Shown here piece by piece: positions 12,113-49,170 of a DNA stretch of 56,042 nucleotides. The translations under genes and the position numbers were made by a program. Position 1 is the first letter of the stretch, and each line of letters opens with the position of its first letter. The notes below the pieces were generated by a model, which saw nothing but the letters and a program-made list of their open reading frames with translations, ran no database searches and was not told the origin of the DNA. Source of the DNA: a virus (lineage: Duplodnaviria; Caudoviricetes); the IMG/VR virus record IMGVR_UViG_3300033741_000064, positions 1-56,042 of that record; one strand, written 5' to 3'.

Positions 12113-13861
12113 CTAGTTGAACGTCTGATAGATCGCGGTGCCGATCGAGATCAATGCCGCCGCGATAGCGCCCCACAGAACCTTCATGCTTGCAGCACTG
12201 GGCATTCCCGTTGGATCTGTCGGCTGTTCCGGCTGTTCCGGTTCGACCGGGAAGGGCTGACCTGTCTCCGGATTCAACGACCCGTCGAAGAACCCTTCCG
12301 CAATCGCACGCACACGAGCCACATCAACGCTCGAGCACGAAGTCTGGAACTTCGCGCCGGTGGAGACGTTGATCTGATTCTTGTGAAGCTCGATCGACTG
12401 AGCACGCAGACGAGGATTGAGCAGCTCAACGAGGTACGTCAAGTAACCCAACGTCGAGTAGACGAGATCCGTGAGCAGCGGGTCATTCTCAGTCGACCAT
12501 GATCGCATCGAAGCCGAGCCCGTCGTGTACGCCACCAGATTCAACGGCTGCACTTCAGTCACCCGACCAGCCGATACGACGAAGTGAACCGAGTAGTCGG
12601 CCTTGCCCGTCAGCGTGTTCACTACACCATCATGCGAGTAGCCGGCATCCGGAGATCCCCACCAGTGCGCAACCTGCTTCACCGGGAAGTAATCGTCAGC
12701 CTGGCCCTTGCTGGCATAGTAAGCACGCGCCTCAGCATTGATCGCCGCACGGTTATCGCGCGTGTTCCGCTTGATCCCGAACTGAATCCACGCCGGGAAG
12801 TCCGCCGCCTTCGGCTGTATCAGATTCGGGTCGCGAGCTGGAGGGAGCGGTGTCGGCTCCACTACTGGGGGCACTACCACCTTGTTCAGATCCGTGAGAT
12901 CGTGCGTGCCAATATCGGTGAAACTACCCGACCAGAAATAGGCGCCCGAGAAAGCACCACGGAACCAGACATCGTTACCGGAGATCTTCTCGCCAGTAAT
13001 CCAGCCGTCGAACGTGCCGAAGTCCTTACCTTCGACAGAGCCGATAACTGCCGTCGCCGTGCTCGCACCCACGCGACCGTTCGCGGGGATGTCCGCCGCG
13101 ACACGACGCTGGTTGCCGTCCAGCTCAGATATTGGAGTCCCGCCCGACGATGCAGGAATCGACGCTCCGGTCAGACTCTTCAAGTCGTGCGTGCCAGTGT
13201 CAGTGAAGCTGCCCGACCAGAAGTACGCACCCGAGAACGCGCCCCGGAACCATACCTTGTTTCCGCCGATGGACTCGCCGTACTTCCAACCATCGAACGT
13301 GCCGTAGTCGAGCCCAGCAACCGACGCGATCACTGCCGTCGACGTACTCGCACCCACACGGCCATTAGCCGGGATGTTCTCAGCCACACGCCGCTGATTG
13401 CCGGCAAGCTTCAGCACCGGCCAGTCAGTGATTCCCGACTTCGGCTTGTTCCTGCCATTCGCACGAGACGCACCAAGGAACGGCCACGGCTGCGTATCAG
13501 CATGACGAATGACAACATGATTGCCGAGGCTCTTCACGGTGTCGCCAGACTTCGCGGTAGCCGCAACCAACACCCGGCCCGATGCCGACCGGCCAACACA
13601 AGTCGCCACGTCACCGTCAGTACCCACGTCCCAGAACAGCTCATCGCCAGCTCTGATCGCCGGATCATTGACGCTCTTCGTGAACATCGTTGACGCTCGA
13701 GCTGCCGTGATTGCCTTGCCGTACGTCACAATGTTTTCGTCGCCCTGATACGCCCACTGGAAATACCAGCTCATGCGCTGGCACTGGAGGTAGAGGGACT
13801 CGCCGGGGTGAATCTGATTCCACAGCTTCAGCGCCTTCTCGGTTAGCTCTAAGCCGTTCAT
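12113..13861 (-). CDS. Modular endolysin: CHAP-like N-domain, two SH3-like repeats, amidase_2, C-terminal TM
   Basis: YLQCQR; duplicated NQRRVA..GTFDGW..WFRGAFSGAYFWSGSFTD; HWWG..SVHFVV..END..H..TSC; VLWGAIAAALISIGTAIY. Confidence 0.88.
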   Translation of the reverse strand: MNGLELTEKALKLWNQIHPGESLYLQCQRMSWYFQWAYQGDENIVTYGKAITAARASTMFTKSVNDPAIRAGDELFWDVGTDGDVATCVGRSASGRVLVAATAKSGDTVKSLGNHVVIRHADTQPWPFLGASRANGRNKPKSGITDWPVLKLAGNQRRVAENIPANGRVGASTSTAVIASVAGLDYGTFDGWKYGESIGGNKVWFRGAFSGAYFWSGSFTDTGTHDLKSLTGASIPASSGGTPISELDGNQRRVAADIPANGRVGASTATAVIGSVEGKDFGTFDGWITGEKISGNDVWFRGAFSGAYFWSGSFTDIGTHDLTDLNKVVVPPVVEPTPLPPARDPNLIQPKAADFPAWIQFGIKRNTRDNRAAINAEARAYYASKGQADDYFPVKQVAHWWGSPDAGYSHDGVVNTLTGKADYSVHFVVSAGRVTEVQPLNLVAYTTGSASMRSWSTENDPLLTDLVYSTLGYLTYLVELLNPRLRAQSIELHKNQINVSTGAKFQTSCSSVDVARVRAIAEGFFDGSLNPETGQPFPVEPEQPEQPTDPTGMPSAASMKVLWGAIAAALISIGTAIYQTFN

Positions 13862-13926
13862 TTGCCGCCGCCATTGCCACCGGGCGTCGAACCGTAGTCT
13901 GGGATGTCCTCGTCTGGATTGCTCAT
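13858..13926 (-). CDS. 22-aa leader peptide overlapping the endolysin start
   Basis: MSNPDEDIPDYGSTPGGNGGGK; TAAGAT-N6-ATG; ATGA overlap. Confidence 0.55.
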   Translation of the reverse strand: MSNPDEDIPDYGSTPGGNGGGK

Positions 13927-13966
13927 GGAGGTATCTTACGACTCAAGCCTGATTTTCGAGGAATAG

Positions 13967-14272
13967 CTACACTGCTGGTTCCCATACTGCCTGAACTGCC
14001 GCCGCGAGTTGCGCATCCGTAACCGCGCCGGGGTCGAGTCCCGGCAAGGGTGGAAGTGCCGCAACCGCATTCTGGTACTGCCCCGCCGCGTAAGCGTGAA
14101 CGGTCGTGAGTGTCGTCGATGCGCTGATCTCCGTCGATACCAGCCGCCCAACGTTCGCCGCGACGAAACCATCCGGGTTCGGAATCTGCGCCTGTTCTGC
14201 CACCGCGATGAGTCGCGCGGTTAGCGCCTTGTCGTCGCGTGCCGCGATGTGTTGTGCCGTTGTGTCTACCAT
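13967..14272 (-). CDS. Small tail-associated protein
   Basis: Follows the tail-collar gene. Confidence 0.65.
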   Translation of the reverse strand: MVDTTAQHIAARDDKALTARLIAVAEQAQIPNPDGFVAANVGRLVSTEISASTTLTTVHAYAAGQYQNAVAALPPLPGLDPGAVTDAQLAAAVQAVWEPAV

Positions 14273-36556: not shown

Positions 36557-38326
36557 CTATAGCGCGACGAAGCCAGCAGAGTCACTGCCCGATGTCGAAT
36601 CGCTGGGAGCTCCACTCGAGCGCAGTACCGAACTCGACGACGTGCCACTGGAGATGATGATCGGGGCCACGTCGTAGAACTCGTGGATCTCGTCTGGCTC
36701 ATACCACGCCATGATGATGCCGTCAGCGCGGTCACCTGAACGGATGCCGCGCTTCAGCATGGATGCCTTCGGTTCGATCTTGATCTTGCCGCGTGCGTCT
36801 TCGCCGTACTTCGGCGCGTTCATCTGGGCAACCGTCTTGTCGTCCACGTCGAGGATGATCGAACGTTGGCCGTGAGAGTCAGCCATGACAGCTTTCCGCA
36901 TTGCCCACCACATCTCGTCGCGGACGTTCGTGAAGTGAACCACGTCACGCGGGAGACTGCCGGCCTTGACCTCAAGGAACACGACGCCGGCGATGCCACC
37001 CTGCGAGACGGGCAGCTCAGACAGGCGCTTCAGATCACCGTAGATATGCCAGCCGAGGCCGAGGCTGTCTACTTTCGCACGCACAGGGGCACTGATGCCT
37101 CGCTTCTTGTGCTCCGCTGCAGCCCATCTAGCCCACTTCGCACACACAGACACGACGTACTGAGAGTCTCGATGTCGCTCGTCAACACGGCCATACTTCG
37201 TCGTCGCTACACCAGTGTCTATCGCGGCGATCACGAACTCGTCACTCATGCCGCCAGCGATGTCCATGCCGAGCTGGATCTCTCCACCAGTCGGGACAAC
37301 GAAGTCATCTTCGACCTCGCCGTTCTTCTTACGCGGCAGCCTGGCCGCTTCGAGCCACATGATCGGCAGGGTCTTCGACTCGTTGCTCTTCGGGAACTGT
37401 GCGTCACGCCGGGCAATGACAACCGCGGATTCTTCACCGTACTCGTCGACGAGATCTTGCACGTAGTCAGCGTCAATCAGGTGCGACGCGACCGTGTGCG
37501 GCTCCATGCCCTTGTGCGATCGGCAGAGCCCGAGATCTTCGCCGGTGAAGTTCGGTGTCTTGCTGTAGGGAATCGGGATGACGTTGAACAGATCCGTGCG
37601 CTCACACTGCTTCTCGAACCACGAGCCTTCGTCGTCGATCGGCGGGTTCCCGATGAGCAGTAGCCGAGTGTGCGAACCAGTCAGCAGACCGAGCAGACCA
37701 CGGCCGAACAGGTGCGAGATGCCGCCAGCTTCGTCGACAACAATCAGGACGTGCGGTGCGTGCATTCCGGAGAGCGCTGCTTCATCCTCGTCCGGAGGCT
37801 TGATACCTTCCGCGACTAGCTCACGGTTGCCGCCAGTGTCGATGTACCACTCGACCATGTTCATCGTGCCCGGTAGTCCGTGCGCGGCGTGGACGTTGCG
37901 GATGTACGGCCACAGCACGTTTCTCACTTGCCGGAAAGTCGTGGCCGTCGTCAGGATACGGGCGGTGCCGGCCGGATGCACTGAGCCCCACCAAGCGATG
38001 ATTCTGGCCGCGATGTGCGACTTGCCGGGAGCGTGGCACGCCGGTACTGCCGTGCGCTTGTTGTCGCGCACTGAAGTCATGATCTCGCGCTGCAGCGACC
38101 ACGCGATCTCGTCTAAGCCTTGCGGGGATGTGACGAAGCCAACCGGATCATTCACGAACGACAGGTACGGGTTCGACTTCCGTTCTTCCATCATGGCCAC
38201 GAGCTTGTTCCGCTCGTTCTGGCTCAGTGCCTTGTAGAACTCTGATCGCTGGTCTGGAGTCATCGCCTTCAGCCGAGTGAAGATGTCCGGCTTCCTAGCC
38301 GGTGCCTTCTCTTCGGTCAAACTCAC
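36557..38326 (-). CDS. terL: Terminase large subunit
   Basis: ACHAPGKS Walker A, LIVVDEA Walker B, IGNP, GMDIAGG, SGDRADG. Confidence 0.95.
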   Translation of the reverse strand: MSLTEEKAPARKPDIFTRLKAMTPDQRSEFYKALSQNERNKLVAMMEERKSNPYLSFVNDPVGFVTSPQGLDEIAWSLQREIMTSVRDNKRTAVPACHAPGKSHIAARIIAWWGSVHPAGTARILTTATTFRQVRNVLWPYIRNVHAAHGLPGTMNMVEWYIDTGGNRELVAEGIKPPDEDEAALSGMHAPHVLIVVDEAGGISHLFGRGLLGLLTGSHTRLLLIGNPPIDDEGSWFEKQCERTDLFNVIPIPYSKTPNFTGEDLGLCRSHKGMEPHTVASHLIDADYVQDLVDEYGEESAVVIARRDAQFPKSNESKTLPIMWLEAARLPRKKNGEVEDDFVVPTGGEIQLGMDIAGGMSDEFVIAAIDTGVATTKYGRVDERHRDSQYVVSVCAKWARWAAAEHKKRGISAPVRAKVDSLGLGWHIYGDLKRLSELPVSQGGIAGVVFLEVKAGSLPRDVVHFTNVRDEMWWAMRKAVMADSHGQRSIILDVDDKTVAQMNAPKYGEDARGKIKIEPKASMLKRGIRSGDRADGIIMAWYEPDEIHEFYDVAPIIISSGTSSSSVLRSSGAPSDSTSGSDSAGFVAL

Positions 38327-39263: not shown

Positions 39264-39914
39264 CTACTCGGGTGAATCATCATCCACCAACTCCGCCTCA
39301 ACAACATCCGACTCATCATCATCGAGCCCCGGAATCAACGCCTCAATCTCATTGAACTTCCGCTCAATCTCATCAGCACTCACCACCGACACATCAACAG
39401 CCACCGGCGAACCAGCCTCAGAACCTTCATGCGCAATACGCAACCGAGCTTCCGGCCGACCGTACTGCTCCGGCATCTTCCGCTCCAACAACCACGCAGC
39501 AGCTTGCCAGTTCTTCGTCATCGCCTGACTGATCACCGTCAACGCACGCGACTCAAACACTGACTTCGCTTTTTCAAGTGCTAACGCGAACACTACGAAG
39601 GGCCATTCAACGGGGTCGAAGTCTTCTGGTACGTCTGTCCAGTGGTTTTTCGTGGGCCAGTGTTCTTCGAGTGTTGGGATTTGTTCGAGTGAGTCTTCTC
39701 CGGTTAGGTCGTCTACGCGGACTATCTCTAGTTTGCCTCGGCGTTGCCAGACGAATGCGGTGTTGCCGGAGATGCCGACTGCGCTAGCGGCGGAGCTGAT
39801 TGCTAGACCGTTGGAGACGTACCCTACGAGTTTCTGGAGTCGGTCGAGGGTGATCTTTGCTGGTGGGCCTTTAGGCTTCTTCGCGAGCACTCCGCCCTGC
39901 TTTGGGGAGGGCAT
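39264..39914 (-). CDS. terS: Terminase small subunit
   Basis: N-terminal HTH (ISSAASAVGISGNT..W..RG), NWQAAAWLLERKMPEQYG. Confidence 0.88.
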   Translation of the reverse strand: MPSPKQGGVLAKKPKGPPAKITLDRLQKLVGYVSNGLAISSAASAVGISGNTAFVWQRRGKLEIVRVDDLTGEDSLEQIPTLEEHWPTKNHWTDVPEDFDPVEWPFVVFALALEKAKSVFESRALTVISQAMTKNWQAAAWLLERKMPEQYGRPEARLRIAHEGSEAGSPVAVDVSVVSADEIERKFNEIEALIPGLDDDESDVVEAELVDDDSPE

Positions 39915-42239: not shown

Positions 42240-42454
42240 TGCTTCGCTCCCAACAGGGCAATGAGCGGGATCCCGACAAAGACAATCAGGCACACTAAGC
42301 CGACCAGCGGGATCACCACGATCCAGAAACCCTTACTCATCATGAAGATCAGCGACTTGTTCCACAGCCGGCGAGGTGTGGAGACTGGAGTTCGAGCACG
42401 ATTACGAGCAAGCTCGCGCAGCCGTTCGGCCTGTTCCATATCTTCAATGTTCAT
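42236..42454 (-). CDS. Small membrane protein
   Basis: C-terminal TM. Confidence 0.65.
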   Translation of the reverse strand: MNIEDMEQAERLRELARNRARTPVSTPRRLWNKSLIFMMSKGFWIVVIPLVGLVCLIVFVGIPLIALLGAKQ

Positions 42455-42456
42455 CT

Positions 42457-43191
42457 CTACTCAGCCTCCTTCTCAGCCTTGATTCCGGCGTCGACGTAAT
42501 CCATGATCTTCACCATGATCCCGGCAATGTTGCGGATGTCCTTGAGCTGGCCGACAGTCTTCACCGTCTTCGAGAAGCGATCGAAGTCCTCATGGTTCGC
42601 GAGATACATCCGCGCATCCGGCTCGAGACGTTCGATCAGATGCTCCCAGCGGTCAAGGTTGCTCGACATAAACAGCACGTAGATCGGCTCGAAGTCGAAC
42701 TCGACGTCCAGAGATTCTGACGGCCACGAACCAACGTCGAGCCTCATATCCATGTCGGACAGGCCGGACTCGAGCTTGGCTTCCGTGCTCTCCATCGAGT
42801 CGAAGAGCTGACGCAGAATATCTAAGTCGTCCTCGCCCGAGAGCGCGTTATGCGCGAGCTGCTTCGCGGTGATCTCGTCCTCTGTGAGATCTCGCTCAAT
42901 GACGATGCAGTGGATGATCATCAAGCCGGCCGTGCGAGCTGCTCGAGTTCGGTGATGACCGGACAGGATCGCAAAGAAATCTGGCTGGTCTGGAATCAAA
43001 GCCACGAGCGGCAGAGACTCCAGCCGGCTCTCAGCGCCGATGTTCGTGGCAAGCCTCGCGAACTTGTCCGGGCTCATCACACGCGCGTTCACATCACGCT
43101 CACGCAGTCGATCCAGATGCACTTTCCAGATCGCTAGACCCGGCGATAGCTCTAGGAGTCGTTCAGGCTTTGGTACGTCGTTCCTCGACAA
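42457..43191 (-). CDS. ParB/Srx-like N-domain protein (DNA-modification-associated type)
   Basis: NARVM....F..L..NI...ILSGHHRTRAA..QLAHNALSGEDD; TTG start after GAGGAAG, overlapping the upstream gene. Confidence 0.85.
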   Translation of the reverse strand: MSRNDVPKPERLLELSPGLAIWKVHLDRLRERDVNARVMSPDKFARLATNIGAESRLESLPLVALIPDQPDFFAILSGHHRTRAARTAGLMIIHCIVIERDLTEDEITAKQLAHNALSGEDDLDILRQLFDSMESTEAKLESGLSDMDMRLDVGSWPSESLDVEFDFEPIYVLFMSSNLDRWEHLIERLEPDARMYLANHEDFDRFSKTVKTVGQLKDIRNIAGIMVKIMDYVDAGIKAEKEAE

Positions 43192-44587
43192 AGGCTTCTT
43201 CCTCTCGAATAAACCGCTCGACAACATCCTTGAAAGTGTCGTCGCGGAAATCTGCCACCATCCGGAGCTTGTAGTTCCCGTCTGGCTGTACTTCTCGGTG
43301 ATCCACCGTGTAGATCCCGTTCGTTGCTTTGCTCTTCCGGTAGCGGCTGAAGATCGTCGTCTTGATCCCACGGATCTTCCAGTACCGATTCTGCCGAGCC
43401 AACGCCCGAAGGTGCGGCGCGAACGCTTGCGACGTGATCAGCAGGTTCAACAGCCGAGACGTACGCGGGTAGACATCACTCGGAACCGTGAAGCCGGAGT
43501 TCAGGAACGCATACTCATCGACCAACCGCATCACCGGCGACATCATGAACATCAACATGCCGAACACCTTGCCGTCGATCAGAATCAAGCCGTACCACTC
43601 GTTGCCCGAAGGGACTCCGAGACGGTGCGCAAACAGGTCGCGGTAGTAGTACGCCACTTCCGGCGTCGTCGTGATCACACGCACGTCTGAGTCGGCCGTC
43701 ATCACGTCAGTCGCACCCCAGATTCGGGCGTCGAGTGGCCTCACGTTCTTCCGTGCAAACGACTTCACACCGTACTTGTGGATAAACCCGTCGAGCACTG
43801 CCGGCCGCGTGCAAAGCCAGTGCGTCACCGTGTGCGGCTTTTCCTCGATCGAGTAGATGATGTCTTCATCCTTGAAATTCTCGACCGACTTCTCGCGATA
43901 CCAGAAGAACGCCGCCTCCGAGATCTGCGACAGCTCGTAGAGCCGGGTGAAGTTCTTGTTCATATCGAGCGGCTCAACGCCAGCGTCGTACTCGATGACA
44001 TCCTCGAAGTCGAAGATCTTGTCGTCGCTATACAGCGGCGGATTGATCACCACCACCGTCTGATCGTCGTACTCCTTCGCAACAGCGTCACGGAGATCCT
44101 CGTGCTCATAGCGGATGCCGGCGTACCGCTTCACCATCGCCTCGACCTGAGTGAGCAGTCGCTCCACATGCACCTGAAAGTGTGCGTCGAGATCCTCGAC
44201 CTCCGCGTTCCGGTAGTGGAGTTTCGCGAGCTGCGTGCGCTTCATGAGCCACAACACGAACGCGACTCTCACGTCACCACGTTCCCTGTCGAGCGTGAGC
44301 GTCTCGTACAGCACCTCAAACTCTGGGGTGATGACGTAGGAAGGTTTCGGGTTATCTTCGCGTAGAAGACTGCCTACGAGGGCGGAGAACAGGGAAACAT
44401 CCGAGACGGTGATGTTCTCACGCTCGTATCCGGCAACAATCGCGCTTAGCACGAGGTTGAACTGACCAACAGCCGGCACCACTAGCTTCGGCCTGGCTTT
44501 CAGAGTGTGTCCCAGAGCGAGGGCGAGAAACTGCCGACTCGGGCCTTTCGTCACCCCTAGAAATATGGGATCTTTCGTGCGAGCCAC
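43163..44587 (-). CDS. Adenine-MTase-like / GNAT-like fusion (putative DNA base-modification, antirestriction enzyme)
   Basis: Degenerate motif I LVVPAVGQF, motif IV VVINPPLY; C-domain YYRDLFAH..LIDGKVFGML..RTSRLL..IKTT..SRY; GTG at 44587 after GGAGGT. Confidence 0.7.
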   Translation of the reverse strand: MARTKDPIFLGVTKGPSRQFLALALGHTLKARPKLVVPAVGQFNLVLSAIVAGYERENITVSDVSLFSALVGSLLREDNPKPSYVITPEFEVLYETLTLDRERGDVRVAFVLWLMKRTQLAKLHYRNAEVEDLDAHFQVHVERLLTQVEAMVKRYAGIRYEHEDLRDAVAKEYDDQTVVVINPPLYSDDKIFDFEDVIEYDAGVEPLDMNKNFTRLYELSQISEAAFFWYREKSVENFKDEDIIYSIEEKPHTVTHWLCTRPAVLDGFIHKYGVKSFARKNVRPLDARIWGATDVMTADSDVRVITTTPEVAYYYRDLFAHRLGVPSGNEWYGLILIDGKVFGMLMFMMSPVMRLVDEYAFLNSGFTVPSDVYPRTSRLLNLLITSQAFAPHLRALARQNRYWKIRGIKTTIFSRYRKSKATNGIYTVDHREVQPDGNYKLRMVADFRDDTFKDVVERFIREEEAFVEERRTKA

Positions 44588-44615
44588 TCTTACCTCCGTC
44601 CCGTTGTACGGACGG

Positions 44616-44687
44616 TGGATGCGGGAGCCAGACTTGCACTGACATCTGAACGCAGGAAGCGCCCCATATTGGTTATACGACCCCGCA
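44616..44687 (-). tRNA. Non-canonical tRNA-Gly(UCC)-like RNA
   Basis: TGCGGGG TC GTAT AACCA ATAT G GGGCG CTTCCTG CGTTC AGAT GTCAG TGCAAGT CTGGC TCCCGCA T CCA: four paired stems, TCC anticodon, U73, encoded CCA. Confidence 0.8.
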
Positions 44688-44705
44688 ATGTGCGCCGCAG
44701 TCCCC

Positions 44706-44735
44706 AGTATAGGGGGAGCGCTGAAGTCATAGCAA
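44706..44735 (-). promoter_or_regulatory. SigA-type promoter for the tRNA/modification operon
   Basis: TTGCTA-N18-TATACT, 18 nt upstream of the tRNA 5' end. Confidence 0.65.
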
Positions 44736-45020
44736 CACCGCAACAATGCCGTCTTTCTGGTTCTCGAAGATCGCACCGCAGCAAGCAGACTTCCACCTTT
44801 TTACCCGAGGGCTCAAGCCCGACTGAGAATCCCACTGGGCAAGATGCAGCTTGCAGATATGACCGGCAAGAGCCGAGCAGCTCGAGCAGATCATCGCCGC
44901 TGCCGCTGGCTCGCCGCAATATGTCGGCACCATCTTCAGCGTTCGCGGGTCGAGTATCCGGATCTCACAGTTAGGTGTCTCCCCGGTGAGTTCCTCGAGA
45001 GACTCAGGCTCAGTCATCAT
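44727..45020 (-). CDS. Cys/His-rich Zn-binding protein
   Basis: NCEI..YCGEPA..ICSSC..HICKLH..ACC. Confidence 0.65.
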   Translation of the reverse strand: MMTEPESLEELTGETPNCEIRILDPRTLKMVPTYCGEPAAAAMICSSCSALAGHICKLHLAQWDSQSGLSPRVKRWKSACCGAIFENQKDGIVAVLL

Positions 45021-45526
45021 GGCGCTATCCACTGGTTCTTCCGAATCTTCGGGAACGACACAACATCCATATCGAACATCCCCTGCTCAGCAATCGGCTT
45101 CGGCGGGGTAGCTCGTGGAGATGAGTTCGCAAGCAGCTCGCCCGTCCACATGATATGCACAACGTCGAGGCCGCGCTCTTCCAGCGGAGGGGTCAACATC
45201 GTGAACCGATGACATCCCTTGAAGTGGCCCTCAGAGCAGCAGATCGCAATCCGCTCACCGCTCTCCGCTCGCACCTTCAGATCGTCGAGCGCCTTCTCGT
45301 AGTCGACGTTCTCACCCTTGCCGCCGAGGTTCTTGCCACGCGACACATAATGGATCCCGACCTTGCGGAGCTCTATCTTCAGCGCGTTCTCGTTGAACTG
45401 TGGGTTATACCGCGACCACGGCACCGAACGCACATCAACCAGCACGCTGATGTCGGCCGCTGTCAGCAGCTCAATGAAGCTCTCCACTGGCTTGTTCGAG
45501 TGTCCAACCGTAAATATTTCAGTCAT
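45017..45526 (-). CDS. DUF488-family protein
   Basis: IFTVGHSN..LVDVRS.P.SR..PQFN..LGG..CCSEG....CHR. Confidence 0.88.
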   Translation of the reverse strand: MTEIFTVGHSNKPVESFIELLTAADISVLVDVRSVPWSRYNPQFNENALKIELRKVGIHYVSRGKNLGGKGENVDYEKALDDLKVRAESGERIAICCSEGHFKGCHRFTMLTPPLEERGLDVVHIMWTGELLANSSPRATPPKPIAEQGMFDMDVVSFPKIRKNQWIAP

Positions 45527-46026: not shown

Positions 46027-46292
46027 AACTGGCCTCCCTTAGCTCTCTCCATGAGGTTGAGCACATGCCGCACGCCCTCATCTGCGTTGATACTCTCCAG
46101 CTCTTCTATCGTGCCGGGCCGCAACGCAAAGTCGCCGTCGATGAGAGTGAAGAGCGCGATGCCGCCACAGTTGAAACAGATCGAGACAGCGCCCTCATCT
46201 GGCAACTCGTTATCGTCCGTCACGCTCGTTGAGCCCACAAGCTGCTCGTTACAGCTCAAGCAAAACACGTTGTTCAAGTCGGTGCTGTTCAT
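46023..46292 (-). CDS. Zn-ribbon protein
   Basis: CLSC..CFNC. Confidence 0.65.
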   Translation of the reverse strand: MNSTDLNNVFCLSCNEQLVGSTSVTDDNELPDEGAVSICFNCGGIALFTLIDGDFALRPGTIEELESINADEGVRHVLNLMERAKGGQL

Positions 46293-46756
46293 GGCCAAAC
46301 TCCATTCTCGAGGTACTGGATCGCTCTCAGGTACTTTTCCTTAAGTCGCTCCTGCACGCTGGGCAAAAGCAGCTTCAAGCGTTCCGGGTCGAGGTTGTCA
46401 GCGATGTCCGCGATCTTCACCTGCATCGCATCCGGGTTCTTGCGAATCGCACCGTAATACCCGTCGAGCGACTGGCCTGGCTTCTTCGTTACCAGCTTTA
46501 CCGCGTCCACGGTGCGCTGCGAGAAACCAAGATCGAGCAGGTCTTCTGCTGTAGCTGGAGTGTCCTCAACCACGTCGTGCAAGTAGCCGGCCGCGACAAC
46601 CGCATCGTCCATGCCCAGCTTCCGCAACGAACGCGCCACACGAGCCGGGTGATAGAAATACGGCTGACCTGCCTTATCAATCTGACCGCGATGCACGAAG
46701 TTCGCAAAGCCAGCGGCCACAGCCACTACCGAGATCTCGTTTATCTCTTCATCCAT
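46289..46756 (-). CDS. HD-domain small alarmone hydrolase (SAH/Mesh1-like)
   Basis: A...HRGQ.DKAG.PY..HP..V; AAGYLHDVVEDT; VKIADIADN; start MDEEIN. Confidence 0.9.
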   Translation of the reverse strand: MDEEINEISVVAVAAGFANFVHRGQIDKAGQPYFYHPARVARSLRKLGMDDAVVAAGYLHDVVEDTPATAEDLLDLGFSQRTVDAVKLVTKKPGQSLDGYYGAIRKNPDAMQVKIADIADNLDPERLKLLLPSVQERLKEKYLRAIQYLENGVWP

Positions 46757-46773
46757 GATGTACCTGCCTTCTC

Positions 46774-46989
46774 TCAGCACTTGCCGAGTTCGATTAGTTC
46801 CTGATAGCAGCGTGGGCAGAGATCCCGCCGAACGCCATTGAAATACTTGATACGCCACCCCAGCTTCCGCGCTTCCTTGCGGGAGAGCTGGGATCTGTTG
46901 CTCGTTCCCTCGAAACCCAAGCAGCCTGGCACCTGAACGCCGAAGTCGCTCGAGTCGCACAACACTGACCAAGTGGCGCGCATCGTCAT
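46774..46989 (-). CDS. Zn-ribbon protein
   Basis: CD..PGC..AR..GW..DLCPRC. Confidence 0.7.
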   Translation of the reverse strand: MTMRATWSVLCDSSDFGVQVPGCLGFEGTSNRSQLSRKEARKLGWRIKYFNGVRRDLCPRCYQELIELGKC

Positions 46990-47324: not shown

Positions 47325-48905
47325 TTACTGCTTAGCGATTACCTTGCGAGCAACCAGCAGTGCCGAACCGATTGCCAGCATAATCGCTGCCGCAATTCCG
47401 AACGGTGTGAGATCCATGCCGGTGTAAGGGAGCACGTCTGCCTTAGCAATCGGCGCTCGATCCACTACTGGAGTGACCGGCTCTTCAGGCTCTTCAGGAA
47501 CAACGACCGGGCAAGCCTCGTCGGTGAACTCGATAGTCTGCACCAGCTCGAAGTCGCCTGAGAAGACGAAGCCGTCTACGGCAACTGCCGTGAGAACGAC
47601 GGTGCCTTCGCCAGCATAGGTGCCGGCATCAACAGTCTCGCCGTCAATCTGCCAGACGTACCCATCAGTTTCAGGAACGGTGTAGGTGTCATCTTCGACC
47701 CCGCACTTGTCCACCGATTCGATGACTGCGATCTCGTTGATCTCAGTGGGGCAGACATTCTCAGCCTGTTCCTCTTCGGTCAGATCTCGTTCGCGAGTCT
47801 TCTCCTTGACGACGGCGTTCTCAGTGTCGAGCACCCACTCGCCCTCAACCAAGATGTACGGCGTCTTGGTTACGGTACGAGTTTGAGCAACCGTAGTTGC
47901 ATCGCAGTCGTAAGTTCCGTCGACCCAAGGGGTTCGCACAACGTTGATCGGCGGCTGTGAACCGTAGCCCCACGTATCCGAGAAGCAATCACTGGACACG
48001 CTCTTCAGGAGAACTGAAACGTCGGCGTTAGAGCCTGAGTCGGTTCCGAGGAAGAAGAATCGCAGTGTGTTGTTCGGGTAATACGCCGCCCACTCGTCGA
48101 GAGTCTGAGCGACCCGCGATCCGTTCGTCAGCTTGCCGCTCGCGATAGCCGAGCCGTCTACTGGCCCTTCACTCACGACCGTCATGCTGTTATAGCTCGA
48201 GCCACCGTCAGCGCTGGAGTCGATCACGATTCGAGGGTAGAACTTGCTGAGGCTATACGCATCAGCTTCCACGTCGTAACTGATCGTCGGGAGCCCTTGC
48301 AGGTTCCCTCCAATTCCGATACCGACTCCCATCGCGTCGTTGACTCCACCAACAAACAGAAGCCCGTTCTCGTTCTCTGTGGGAGCAGTGTCGTCGCCCT
48401 CAGTGAACCAGTCACCCCAAGTAACGATGCACTCTTTAGGGCCAACCGGAACGGGGTCGCACTCCACGGCTTCGTGCTCGATGTAGCTGTCGGGCACCTC
48501 GATAACCGCTTCAGTCACGAGGACTTCTTCAGTGATCTCAGGAGTTGCTTCGAGGTAGAACCATGAGCCACGACCTTCGTTGCCCTCGCCCTGCCGATAA
48601 GCGCCTTCGACTCCGATCTTGTGCGGGTCGCCAGCTACGTTGGCTTGCCACTCAGCGCCGGGGAATGCAGGAGCTTCTACGCTCTGCCCACCCGTCCACG
48701 AGTAGCGCTGCCAACCGGCCTCTGTCACAACGACGGTTTCATAAACAGCGTCCGCGCCGGGAGTGCCGGTAACGGTTTCTGTCCATGCGTCCGAAGGGAC
48801 ACAGGGCTCCGGGGTGCTGGTGGTCGCTGTAGCGGCACCCGCTCCGGATAGTGCCAGCCCTACGGCCAGCAGAGCGGTCGTACAGACCGCAATGAATTTC
48901 TTCAC
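47325..48905 (-). CDS. Secreted, sortase-anchored (LPYTG) cell-surface protein
   Basis: Signal peptide MKKFIAVCTTALLAVGLALSGAGAATA; C-terminal LPYTG + TM + RK tail; GTG after GGAGG. Confidence 0.88.
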   Translation of the reverse strand: MKKFIAVCTTALLAVGLALSGAGAATATTSTPEPCVPSDAWTETVTGTPGADAVYETVVVTEAGWQRYSWTGGQSVEAPAFPGAEWQANVAGDPHKIGVEGAYRQGEGNEGRGSWFYLEATPEITEEVLVTEAVIEVPDSYIEHEAVECDPVPVGPKECIVTWGDWFTEGDDTAPTENENGLLFVGGVNDAMGVGIGIGGNLQGLPTISYDVEADAYSLSKFYPRIVIDSSADGGSSYNSMTVVSEGPVDGSAIASGKLTNGSRVAQTLDEWAAYYPNNTLRFFFLGTDSGSNADVSVLLKSVSSDCFSDTWGYGSQPPINVVRTPWVDGTYDCDATTVAQTRTVTKTPYILVEGEWVLDTENAVVKEKTRERDLTEEEQAENVCPTEINEIAVIESVDKCGVEDDTYTVPETDGYVWQIDGETVDAGTYAGEGTVVLTAVAVDGFVFSGDFELVQTIEFTDEACPVVVPEEPEEPVTPVVDRAPIAKADVLPYTGMDLTPFGIAAAIMLAIGSALLVARKVIAKQ

Positions 48906-48960
48906 ACTTTCCTCCTTCTTACCTCTCCGGGCGCCGGGTGACGCTCGCGGAATACCATCG

Positions 48961-49170
48961 CTACTTGCGACGGAAAATATAGACAACTGCGCCGCTGCCG
49001 GCGAGTCCATAGCCGACGAAAGCCAGCCCGTTTACTTCGACCGTGCCGCTGACTGAGTAAGCGAACAGGATGCCGATACCGACCAGCATCGCGACGAAAC
49101 CAGCAACCGCGTCGAGCCGGATGTGAATTGTCTCCGGCTCGGCGGTGAGTGGCTCGAGCTTGCGGCCCAT
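48961..49170 (-). CDS. Small 2-TM membrane protein
   Basis: Two hydrophobic helices and an RRK tail. Confidence 0.65.
   Translation of the reverse strand: MGRKLEPLTAEPETIHIRLDAVAGFVAMLVGIGILFAYSVSGTVEVNGLAFVGYGLAGSGAVVYIFRRK

Follow-up and report, generated by a model that had tools for sequence, protein, structure and literature searches.

The virus contig IMGVR_UViG_3300033741_000064 (Duplodnaviria; Caudoviricetes) raises the question of why a phage should keep a tRNA-shaped RNA gene just in front of a gene whose product joins an adenine-methylase-like half to a GNAT-like half. We analysed the whole stretch of 56,042 nucleotides (hereafter the window), which has an estimated completeness of 93% and whose terL is nearest to those of Arthrobacter, Microbacterium, and Streptomyces phages at ~46% identity. 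All of the cassette genes and the RNA element discussed here lie on the minus strand, in the order DUF488-family gene (45017-45526), tRNA-like RNA (44616-44687), DAM-like/GNAT-like fusion gene (43163-44587), and ParB-like gene (42457-43227). Judged from its distribution, the RNA is a conserved partner of the fusion gene in the window phage and in most of its relatives. We see about an even chance that it serves as a private aminoacyl-donor RNA for a Dam-guided, GNAT-catalysed modification of adenine in the phage DNA before packaging.

The window taken alone offers weak evidence for such an RNA. ARAGORN reported 0 tRNAs in the window, the Rfam tRNA model had no match at E ≤ 10 in 44400-44900, RF00005 had none in the whole record, and the 125-nt leader folded no better than its shuffles (z -0.21). 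When the 72 nt were folded by themselves, the cloverleaf was both the minimum-energy and the centroid structure, although z was only -1.56 and 15 of 200 shuffles did equally well. The element contains a 7-bp acceptor stem with a U1:A72 pair, a discriminator U, an encoded CCA, and a 4-nt variable region; its loops are AACCA (D loop, without GG), CUUCCUG (anticodon loop), and UGCAAGU (T loop). Of the canonical tRNA bases, U33 is kept, position 37 is U and not a purine, and neither G18G19 nor U54-U55-C56 is present. It was the relatives that, in our judgement, settled the reality of the RNA. A covariance model (R1), built from 43 ARAGORN tRNAs upstream of homologous genes with the window excluded, was run on the whole window with filters off and matched 44616-44687(-) with 55.0 bits (E 1.7e-13) along model positions 1-74 of 74. 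These are exactly the coordinates at which the original prediction, made from the letters of the window, had placed a 72-nt cloverleaf. The second-best match, at 12209-12283 (+), lacks a D arm, lies inside a coding region, and is probably due to chance (13.8 bits, E 0.12); because nothing better follows, the element is the only strong tRNA-like match in the 56-kb genome, as had been claimed. An origin as an attachment site was set aside: the element is full length, the window has no adjacent integrase, and no long stretch identical to host tRNA-Glu or tRNA-Gln was seen by eye.

We gathered homolog loci from viral contigs, species-representative genomes, and metagenome contigs, together with phage FP_Brigit, and placed the gene by profile. 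The resulting set comprises 101 non-identical loci, including the window, each with the N-terminus and at least 150 nt upstream. In 49 of these loci ARAGORN detected a tRNA on the strand of the gene and no more than 600 nt upstream; elsewhere in the 5-6-kb loci it detected just 2. Over the other 100 loci (531,184 bases, both strands, E ≤ 0.01), R1 gave 92 matches, every one on the strand of the gene; 43 of these are the training sequences of the model, and one locus (L067) is a second assembly of the phage of the window and hence not independent. In 82 loci a match lies within 600 nt upstream; the distance is at most 100 nt in 73 of these and at most 35 nt in 56. Just 4 matches lie elsewhere. 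The spacer from the element to the start codon has a median of 23.5 nt and a range of 0-389 nt. With filters off, two of the 18 negative loci gained a match, 8 and 29 nt upstream, which brings the total to 84 of 100 loci. When the proteins are grouped at 90%, 70%, and 50% identity, 74/87, 66/72, and 47/51 of the clusters, respectively, have the element, whose position is kept down to ~21-23% protein identity. The original prediction had proposed a search for cloverleaves upstream of the homologs, and the counts of 84/100 loci and 47/51 clusters are its outcome. In our assessment the co-occurrence of RNA and enzyme is too tight and too old for chance.

Some copies stand away from the usual position: a 74-bit match ~3 kb downstream of the gene (L034), two copies 1.7-2.2 kb upstream (L046 and L139), and one downstream (L134). 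Six loci contain tandem upstream copies (L018, L027, L098, L099, L113, and L117), whose loops are sometimes different; the copies of L117 have UUG and CUC, and L113 has a UCC-type copy beside a Met-like tRNA. A scan of viral contigs with the single protein returned nothing, and scans with the closer relatives P0004 and P0007 also came back empty, so that no close relative of the RNA of the window itself was available for comparison. A search of plasmids gave no homolog of the fusion protein.

The RNA family is conserved as a folded structure. RNAalifold folded the 43 seed sequences into a cloverleaf with compensatory changes in 20 of the 21 pairs. In a model-fitted alignment of 88 distinct upstream sequences, 96.5% of the cells were paired, against 35-50% when the partners were slid and 61% in shuffles. 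Covariation was strong: changes on both sides affected 588 cells, where shuffles gave 152 +/- 14 and none of 500 reached the observed value; a model-fitted alignment leans to the structure of its model and the sequences are related, yet the margin is still large. The variable region is 4 nt long in 83 of the 88 elements, the 4-bp D stem is of the GUCU/GGAC or GUCU/GGAU type in 49, the D-loop GG is present in 40, and CCA is encoded in 47. The T loops that start with UGC instead of UUC occur mostly with GG-less D loops (10 without GG vs 3 with; alignment A5), as if the two sides of the elbow contact had changed together. At 1:72, 38 elements have U:A, 34 have C:G, 11 have an A.G mismatch, and no element has G:C. 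The Rfam tRNA threshold was reached by 5 of the 20 elements that ARAGORN had missed.

The anticodon loop is, on these alignments, the least constrained part of the RNA. It is 7 nt long in 64 of the 88 elements and 6, 8, or 10 nt long in 24; among the seven-nt loops, U33 is found in 35/64 and a purine at position 37 in 51/64. The triplets of these loops are CUC (27), CUG (11), UUC (7), UCC (5), UUG (4), UUA (3), and CUA (2), with 5 others. The variability, the odd loop lengths, and the loss of U33 argue against decoding, in agreement with the earlier idea of an RNA excluded from translation. Selection maintains a folded, L-shaped RNA with an acceptor end and leaves the parts needed by the ribosome to decay.

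Which amino acid such an RNA would carry is less clear than its shape. In two cassette-carrying host genomes whose tRNAs were read, the combination of a UCGUCUA...GGAC D arm and a 4-nt variable region was found in tRNA-Glu and tRNA-Gln only, and the body of the family RNA is therefore of the Glu/Gln type. In E. coli tRNA-Glu, the 4-bp D stem is described as holding major identity elements for glutamyl-tRNA synthetase (PMC2777447). Loop class and discriminator are partly linked, with small numbers and related sequences: YUG loops have G73 in 9/15 and U1:A72 in 10/15, YUA loops have both in 5/5, and the 7-nt UCC loops have U73 in 4/5. On a tree of 99 enzymes (a quick IQ-TREE run, with a midpoint root for drawing only), explaining the loop class takes 49 changes, where 9 would be the fewest possible and shuffles need 63.7 on average. 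The enzyme of the window belongs to a 13-row group (99% by the Shimodaira-Hasegawa-like approximate likelihood-ratio test) whose RNAs are of the UGC...GCA/G73 type, and for this reason the UCC loop, U73, the A-U-rich D stem, and the UGCAAGU T loop of the window are read as derived. We regard its UCC/U73 as a derived, minority, Gly-like state. Glycine is thus a plausible amino acid for the window RNA, though somewhat short of an even chance, from UCC and U73 and from the parallel with Mycobacterium phage Jeon described below. Glutamate or glutamine, to which the ancestry of the body points, is a possibility of much the same weight; the remaining probability goes to some other amino acid or to none. 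The original prediction of a Gly-type RNA fits the UCC/U73 of the window, and a full Gly-type tRNA occupies this position in Jeon, but the family body is of the Glu/Gln type.

The fusion gene begins at a GTG codon (44587), is preceded by GGAGG, and encodes 474 amino acids up to 43163 with the stop included. Pfam assigned residues 9-188 to PF22555 DAM-like-phage1 (E 3.9e-19) and residues 300-463 (43199-43690) to PF22559 GNAT-phage-like (E 2.1e-19), where 70.4 bits compare with a cut-off of 27. Both domains are present in 74 of 74 aligned relatives, with no other recurrent family. The protein belongs to phrog_7858, whose function is listed as unknown, and neither NCBIfam nor PADLOC has a family for it. 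At E ≤ 1e-3, a scan of 1.84 billion representative proteins (50% clustering) returned 490 relatives, of which 105 also passed E ≤ 1e-30; the two nearest to the window have 61% and 43% identity. They come from phages or prophage-like loci in metagenome-assembled genomes of Bacteroidota, Planctomycetota, Thermodesulfobacteriota, and Acidobacteria, and from cultured phages of Faecalibacterium and Actinomycetota hosts. PDB sequence searches with the fusion protein and its profile found no relative, just a coiled-coil chance match.

We consider the N-terminal half a true homolog of the D12/Dam methyltransferases, as the original prediction of an adenine-methylase-like half had it. In the window this methyltransferase-fold domain spans residues 9 to ~238 (43874-44563), with NPPLY at residues 182-186. 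When alignment A3 or its N-half was compared by hhalign with 17 PF02086 domains, the probabilities were 90.4% and 93.7% and the E-values 1.4e-6 and 1.9e-7 over 183-187 columns, against 0.05-0.19 in the cross-comparisons that served as negative controls. In the resulting alignment, P-[AC]-x-G-x-F falls on EPFxGxG, Asp63 on the Asp that is invariant in Dam, and N-P-P on D-P-P. Gly41 is kept in 74/74 relatives, Asp63 in 73/74, and Asn182 in 47/74, and the aromatic residue is shifted by one position. The full D12 set of EPFxGxG (motif I), the N-terminal GGK motif, and DPPY (motif IV) was not found intact in this half: the Glu and the second Gly of motif I are lost, DPPY is replaced by N-P-P-x-Y/F, and PF02086 itself gave no match to the fusion protein at E ≤ 1. 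A protein-atlas comparison pointed to PF02086 clusters (score 0.92), as a lead only. The C-terminal half carries a near-invariant YYRDLFAH motif and conserved Arg and Lys residues. Fusion forms of ~740 amino acids also exist (P0062 and P0118), with a LAGLIDADG intein-like insert of ~270 residues directly after the NPP motif at query position ~190; such an insert site is typical of functionally critical motifs.

The ParB-like gene ends at 42457 and starts with ATG 43227 or TTG 43191, giving a protein of ~256 amino acids, and its start overlaps the end of the fusion gene by 29-65 nt, depending on the start chosen. Its protein matches phrog_7405 (E 1.7e-48) and several ParB-like PHROGs. With Pfam ParB_N it reaches 16 bits (cut-off 26.3), and 35 of 44 family members match at E ≤ 0.01, the best at 1.2e-6; an S-G-H-H-R box and an N-A motif are invariant in the family. 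The partnership that had been proposed for the window is conserved, a ParB-like gene lying downstream in 77 of the 92 loci with a visible downstream side.

A fourth conserved part, which the original prediction lacked, is the DUF488 gene. In the window it encodes 169 amino acids and matches PF04343 with E 2.7e-15 and 57.5 bits (cut-off 22.2). Of 65 representative loci, 44 have a same-strand DUF488-like gene upstream, and the homologs in other loci match PF04343 or PF22751. A PDB sequence search with the DUF488 protein found no relative. The distance from its stop codon to the start of the tRNA-like RNA has a median of 9 nt (n=43) and is 329 nt in the window. Among 63 representative loci with both flanks visible, all four parts are present in 38; DUF488 alone is missing in 9 and ParB alone in 4. 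The others have RNA and enzyme only (6), enzyme and ParB only (4), DUF488, enzyme, and ParB (1), or the enzyme alone (1). The cassette stands just before terS/terL in the window, in FP_Brigit, and in ValentiniPuff.

Cultured phages also carry the cassette. In Mycobacterium phage Jeon and ~nine sister records, an annotated tRNA-Gly(tcc), gene 67 in Jeon, stands directly before gp68, which matches PF22555 (E 9e-86) and PF22559 (E 2e-57) and is overlapped by the next gene by 4 nt. This tRNA has G1:C72, C2:G71, G3:C70, U73, and a CUUCCAG loop, bases that we take to be the bacterial tRNA-Gly identity set. It is the one tRNA called by ARAGORN in the 6.3-kb locus and by the record annotation, and Rfam gave no tRNA match on Jeon, the annotated tRNA-Gly included. 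In Microbacterium phage ValentiniPuff (MH825712), the cassette is split across the genome ends: DUF488 (gp112), the tRNA-like element (62354-62428, R1 38 bits), the genome end, the fusion gene (gp1), the ParB-like gene (gp2), and the terminase (gp3 and gp4). In Faecalibacterium phage FP_Brigit (MG711465), the order is DUF488, a tRNA at 13917-13990, the fusion gene, ParB, terS, and terL. This tRNA is of the Lys type, with C1:G72 and a D loop without GG, and scores 62 bits with Rfam. The tRNA-like genes of ValentiniPuff and FP_Brigit are absent from the record annotation, and in both whole records the cassette element is the only Rfam tRNA match. FP_Brigit also encodes an S-adenosylmethionine synthetase (L001 993-2171) 2 kb upstream of the cassette, and its Dam-like half could still be using S-adenosylmethionine. 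The frame of the fusion gene of the window stays open upstream through the tRNA-like element (537-aa open reading frame, 43163-44776 (-)), and the gp68 start of Jeon overlaps the tRNA by 18 nt (L217 2450-2467); gene callers may thus hide the RNA.

In the private-donor reading, the RNA would be cut from the operon transcript, and CCA would be added where it is not encoded. A host aminoacyl-tRNA synthetase would charge it, probably with Glu (or Gln after amidation) in most lineages and possibly with Gly in the window and the Jeon group. The charged RNA would then act in trans, kept from translation, and the GNAT-like half would move the aminoacyl group to N6 of an adenine flipped out of double-stranded DNA by the Dam-like half, while the ParB-like NTPase would load or activate the enzyme on the DNA ahead of packaging. 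The expected outcome is restriction-resistant virion DNA. The reaction would parallel that of Mu Mom, a GNAT-fold enzyme described as transferring glycine from host Gly-tRNA(Gly) to adenine N6 in double-stranded DNA (PMC13219725), so that the premise from which the original prediction started is in print. ParB proteins are described as activators of phage DNA-base-modifying dioxygenases (PMC13229309), and the ParB-CTPase fold as fused to methylases, acetyltransferases, and DUF488 (bioRxiv 10.1101/2025.10.10.680097); together with the Mom precedent, these make the donor reading the most economical one. Action in trans is suggested by the encoded CCA, the tandem and relocated copies, and the variable spacer of 0-389 nt, and a DNA target by the Dam homology with N-P-P-x-Y/F and Asp63, the ParB-like partner, and the terminase neighbourhood. 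A bolder reading, with a probability clearly below even, is that many uncultivated and some cultured phages encode such a non-decoding carrier, which together with the DUF488 protein and the ParB-like NTPase would feed an adenine-aminoacylating enzyme. Since the RNA body varies (Glu/Gln-type in most lineages, Gly-type for the Jeon group and perhaps for the window, Lys-type in FP_Brigit), the cassette would on this reading write a set of differing, amino-acid-derived adenine hypermodifications, with the RNA as the swappable specificity module.

Several points weigh against the private-donor reading. Every biochemical step of it is one that we infer, and it does not account for DUF488. A search of sequencing runs listed DNA contigs from brine metagenomes and no RNA data set. 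The upstream element is missing from 16 of the 100 loci, 9 of which form one clade; many of the element-negative contigs are fragments. CCA is not encoded in 41 of the 88 elements. The loop class differs between near-identical enzymes (CUA vs CUG; 6-nt vs 7-nt loop), a switching that rules out the anticodon as a fixed identity element and leaves the amino acid undefined. The GNAT assignment of the C-half follows the label of the Pfam curators. Pfam Mom (PF25680) gave no match to the fusion protein at E ≤ 1, and hhalign of the C-half against 26 Mom homologs gave a probability of 0.9-1.8% and E 0.027-0.063, no improvement on the negative controls (0.05-0.19). Against the Fem-like Acetyltransf_6 the result was not significant (E 0.11). 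The likenesses to Mom, a common Y-x-x-x-N-R-[LM] stretch and a protein-atlas score of 0.87, are leads only. The same test did not detect Mom against the Fem-like set (E 0.24); it is therefore blind to kinship at the GNAT level and says little. No Leu/Phe-tRNA transferases were found for comparison in the 41 genomes searched. Of the GNAT-like C-half that had been proposed, the Pfam match to PF22559 stands, whereas the similarity to Mom- or Fem-like profiles is not significant. Finally, with Gly41 and Asp63 of the cofactor site kept and an S-adenosylmethionine synthetase in FP_Brigit, the enzyme could be an S-adenosylmethionine-dependent methylase joined to an acyl-CoA GNAT.

This last point leads to a different use of the same parts, in which the RNA would be the substrate, scaffold, or guide of the enzyme: the Dam-like half would methylate and the GNAT-like half acylate the RNA, or the RNA would be a structural subunit of a DNA-acting ribonucleoprotein. 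D12-type folds can act on RNA, the kept cofactor-site residues fit an active methylase, and the co-occurrence of RNA and enzyme is compatible with such a use. The GNATs TmcA, TacT, and AtaT, moreover, are known to modify tRNA (PMC13219725). We nevertheless hold this explanation to be unlikely, as the ParB-like partner and the terminase-adjacent position point to DNA, and an RNA that varies most in its anticodon loop and keeps its acceptor end and CCA is better suited to a donor than to a substrate of loop modification. The element might instead act in cis, as an RNase P/Z processing signal between the DUF488 and enzyme messages or as a tRNA mimic for translational autorepression. Its place inside the operon, a median of 9 nt past the DUF488 stop and 23.5 nt before the enzyme start, would suit such a role, as would the hairpin of the window between the element and the start codon, which reaches the ribosome-binding site. 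The spacer of 0-389 nt, the six loci with tandem copies, and the copies moved by 1.7-3 kb or downstream would not, and the encoded CCA (47/88) and the coupled changes of D loop and T loop indicate selection for a complete, free L-shaped RNA; we rate this explanation as quite improbable.

Still less likely, and only a slight possibility, is a toxin-like or host-takeover role, in which the GNAT-like half would acylate host aminoacyl-tRNAs and the RNA would be its decoy or antidote, or would divert host anticodon nucleases. GNAT toxins such as TacT and AtaT are described as acetylating charged tRNAs (PMC13219725), and a non-decoding tRNA look-alike could titrate such an activity. However, PADLOC and the toxin families gave no match, and the fusion to a Dam homolog (74/74), the ParB-like partner, and the late-gene position would be left unexplained. 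Least probable of all, and barely credible to us, is that a normal phage tRNA, serving as codon supplement or suppressor, happened to be inherited beside the fusion gene. The detection of 49 of 101 loci by ARAGORN and of FP_Brigit by Rfam (62 bits) and the annotation of the Jeon copy as tRNA-Gly speak for it. A position kept in 47 of 51 clusters down to ~21-23% protein identity speaks against it, as do the non-7-nt loops, the common loss of U33, and the failure of Rfam to match the window element and the Jeon copy. Recoding of stop codons by the CUA and UUA variants was considered and rejected: the adjacent genes are open under table 11, with no in-frame stops.

The remaining features of the window lie around the cassette. 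A sigma-70-like promoter match, TTGCTA-N18-TATACT, is present as claimed at 44706-44735 (-), with TTGCTA at 44735-44730 and TATACT at 44711-44706. It agrees with the consensus at 9/12 positions, and taken alone it is at chance level, a scan of 42300-45100 giving 1 site vs 1.0 +/- 1.2 in shuffles. The 28-nt spacer between the element and the fusion gene (44588-44615 (-)) contains a 6-bp hairpin whose 3' arm reaches into the GGAGG ribosome-binding site; both this spacer and the 474-aa gene behind it are as first described. So is the arrangement further downstream, where the overlapping ParB-like gene is followed after 2.5 kb by terS (39264-39914 (-)) and then by terL (36557-38326 (-)). A small open reading frame of 101 amino acids (44727-45032 (-)) lies between the DUF488 gene and the tRNA-like element. 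It matches no Pfam or PHROG family, falls outside the conserved open reading frame clusters of the homolog loci, and is possibly not a member of the cassette. Located 0.8 kb upstream of the DUF488 gene is a gene for an HD-domain phosphohydrolase (46289-46972 (-); phrog_990, E 3.3e-46; Pfam HD_4 and HD). A 561-aa open reading frame (47325-49010 (-)) has no PHROG family and a weak C-terminal LPXTG-anchor match (18.6 bits, below the cut-off).

A literature search gave no description of the cassette or of a tRNA gene beside PF22555/PF22559 proteins; supplementary data and subscription papers were outside the search. The use of host tRNA glycine for DNA by Mom was shown recently, and the present family is much larger and wider and has its own tRNA-shaped RNA. 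If this RNA is a donor, no virus-encoded tRNA before it would have been devoted to a reaction outside translation. Some of the odd orphan phage tRNAs that pipelines miss or call ordinary would then be explained, and the cassette would point to new amino-acid-derived DNA bases of relevance to restriction evasion, sequencing artefacts, and enzymatic tools. Because cultured phages of Mycobacterium smegmatis, Microbacterium, and Faecalibacterium carry the cassette, the donor hypothesis is directly testable.

Among the known systems, Mom of phage Mu (PF25680) comes close in concept: both are late-encoded phage enzymes assigned to the GNAT fold, and the target of Mom is a flipped adenine in double-stranded DNA and its donor an aminoacyl-tRNA (PMC13219725). 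In the present system the GNAT-like domain is joined to an adenine-methylase-like one and accompanied by a tRNA-shaped RNA, and its function is read from context. Mom, a single protein of ~240 amino acids with a helix-turn-helix-like insert, draws on host tRNA(Gly) and lacks a Dam-like domain, a ParB partner, and an RNA gene of its own. The FemX/FemAB transferases of staphylococci are GNAT-fold aminoacyl transferases served by non-proteinogenic tRNA(Gly) isoacceptors that are poor translation substrates. They resemble the cassette in combining a GNAT-fold aminoacyl transferase with dedicated tRNAs, but they are cellular, build peptidoglycan cross-bridges, and use tRNAs whose anticodon loops are canonical and whose genes are not known to sit next to that of the enzyme. 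The D12 (Dam) methyltransferases are homologous to the N-half, with the difference that the cassette domain is always fused to a GNAT-like domain and has P-[AC]-x-G-x-F as motif I and N-P-P-x-Y/F for DPPY.

Association with ParB and a position near the terminase are described as typical of phage DNA methylases (bioRxiv 10.1101/2025.10.10.680097), as in the cassette. In the ParB-dependent phage thymidine dioxygenases (5mYOX), a ParB-like NTPase-fold activator is likewise encoded beside a post-replicative base-modifying enzyme (PMC13229309). These belong to another enzyme class, act on another target base, and differ from the cassette in having no RNA component. Chargeable tRNA mimics without an anticodon function are familiar from tmRNA and from the 3' tRNA-like structures of plant viruses. 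Those serve ribosome rescue and viral RNA replication or translation, and none is known as a free small RNA paired with an enzyme of the DNA-modification type. GNAT-type enzymes that take their acyl group from a tRNA are thus already known from Mom and Fem; what is new is an RNA gene of the system's own, a Dam-derived domain for targeting, and ParB and DUF488 as partners.

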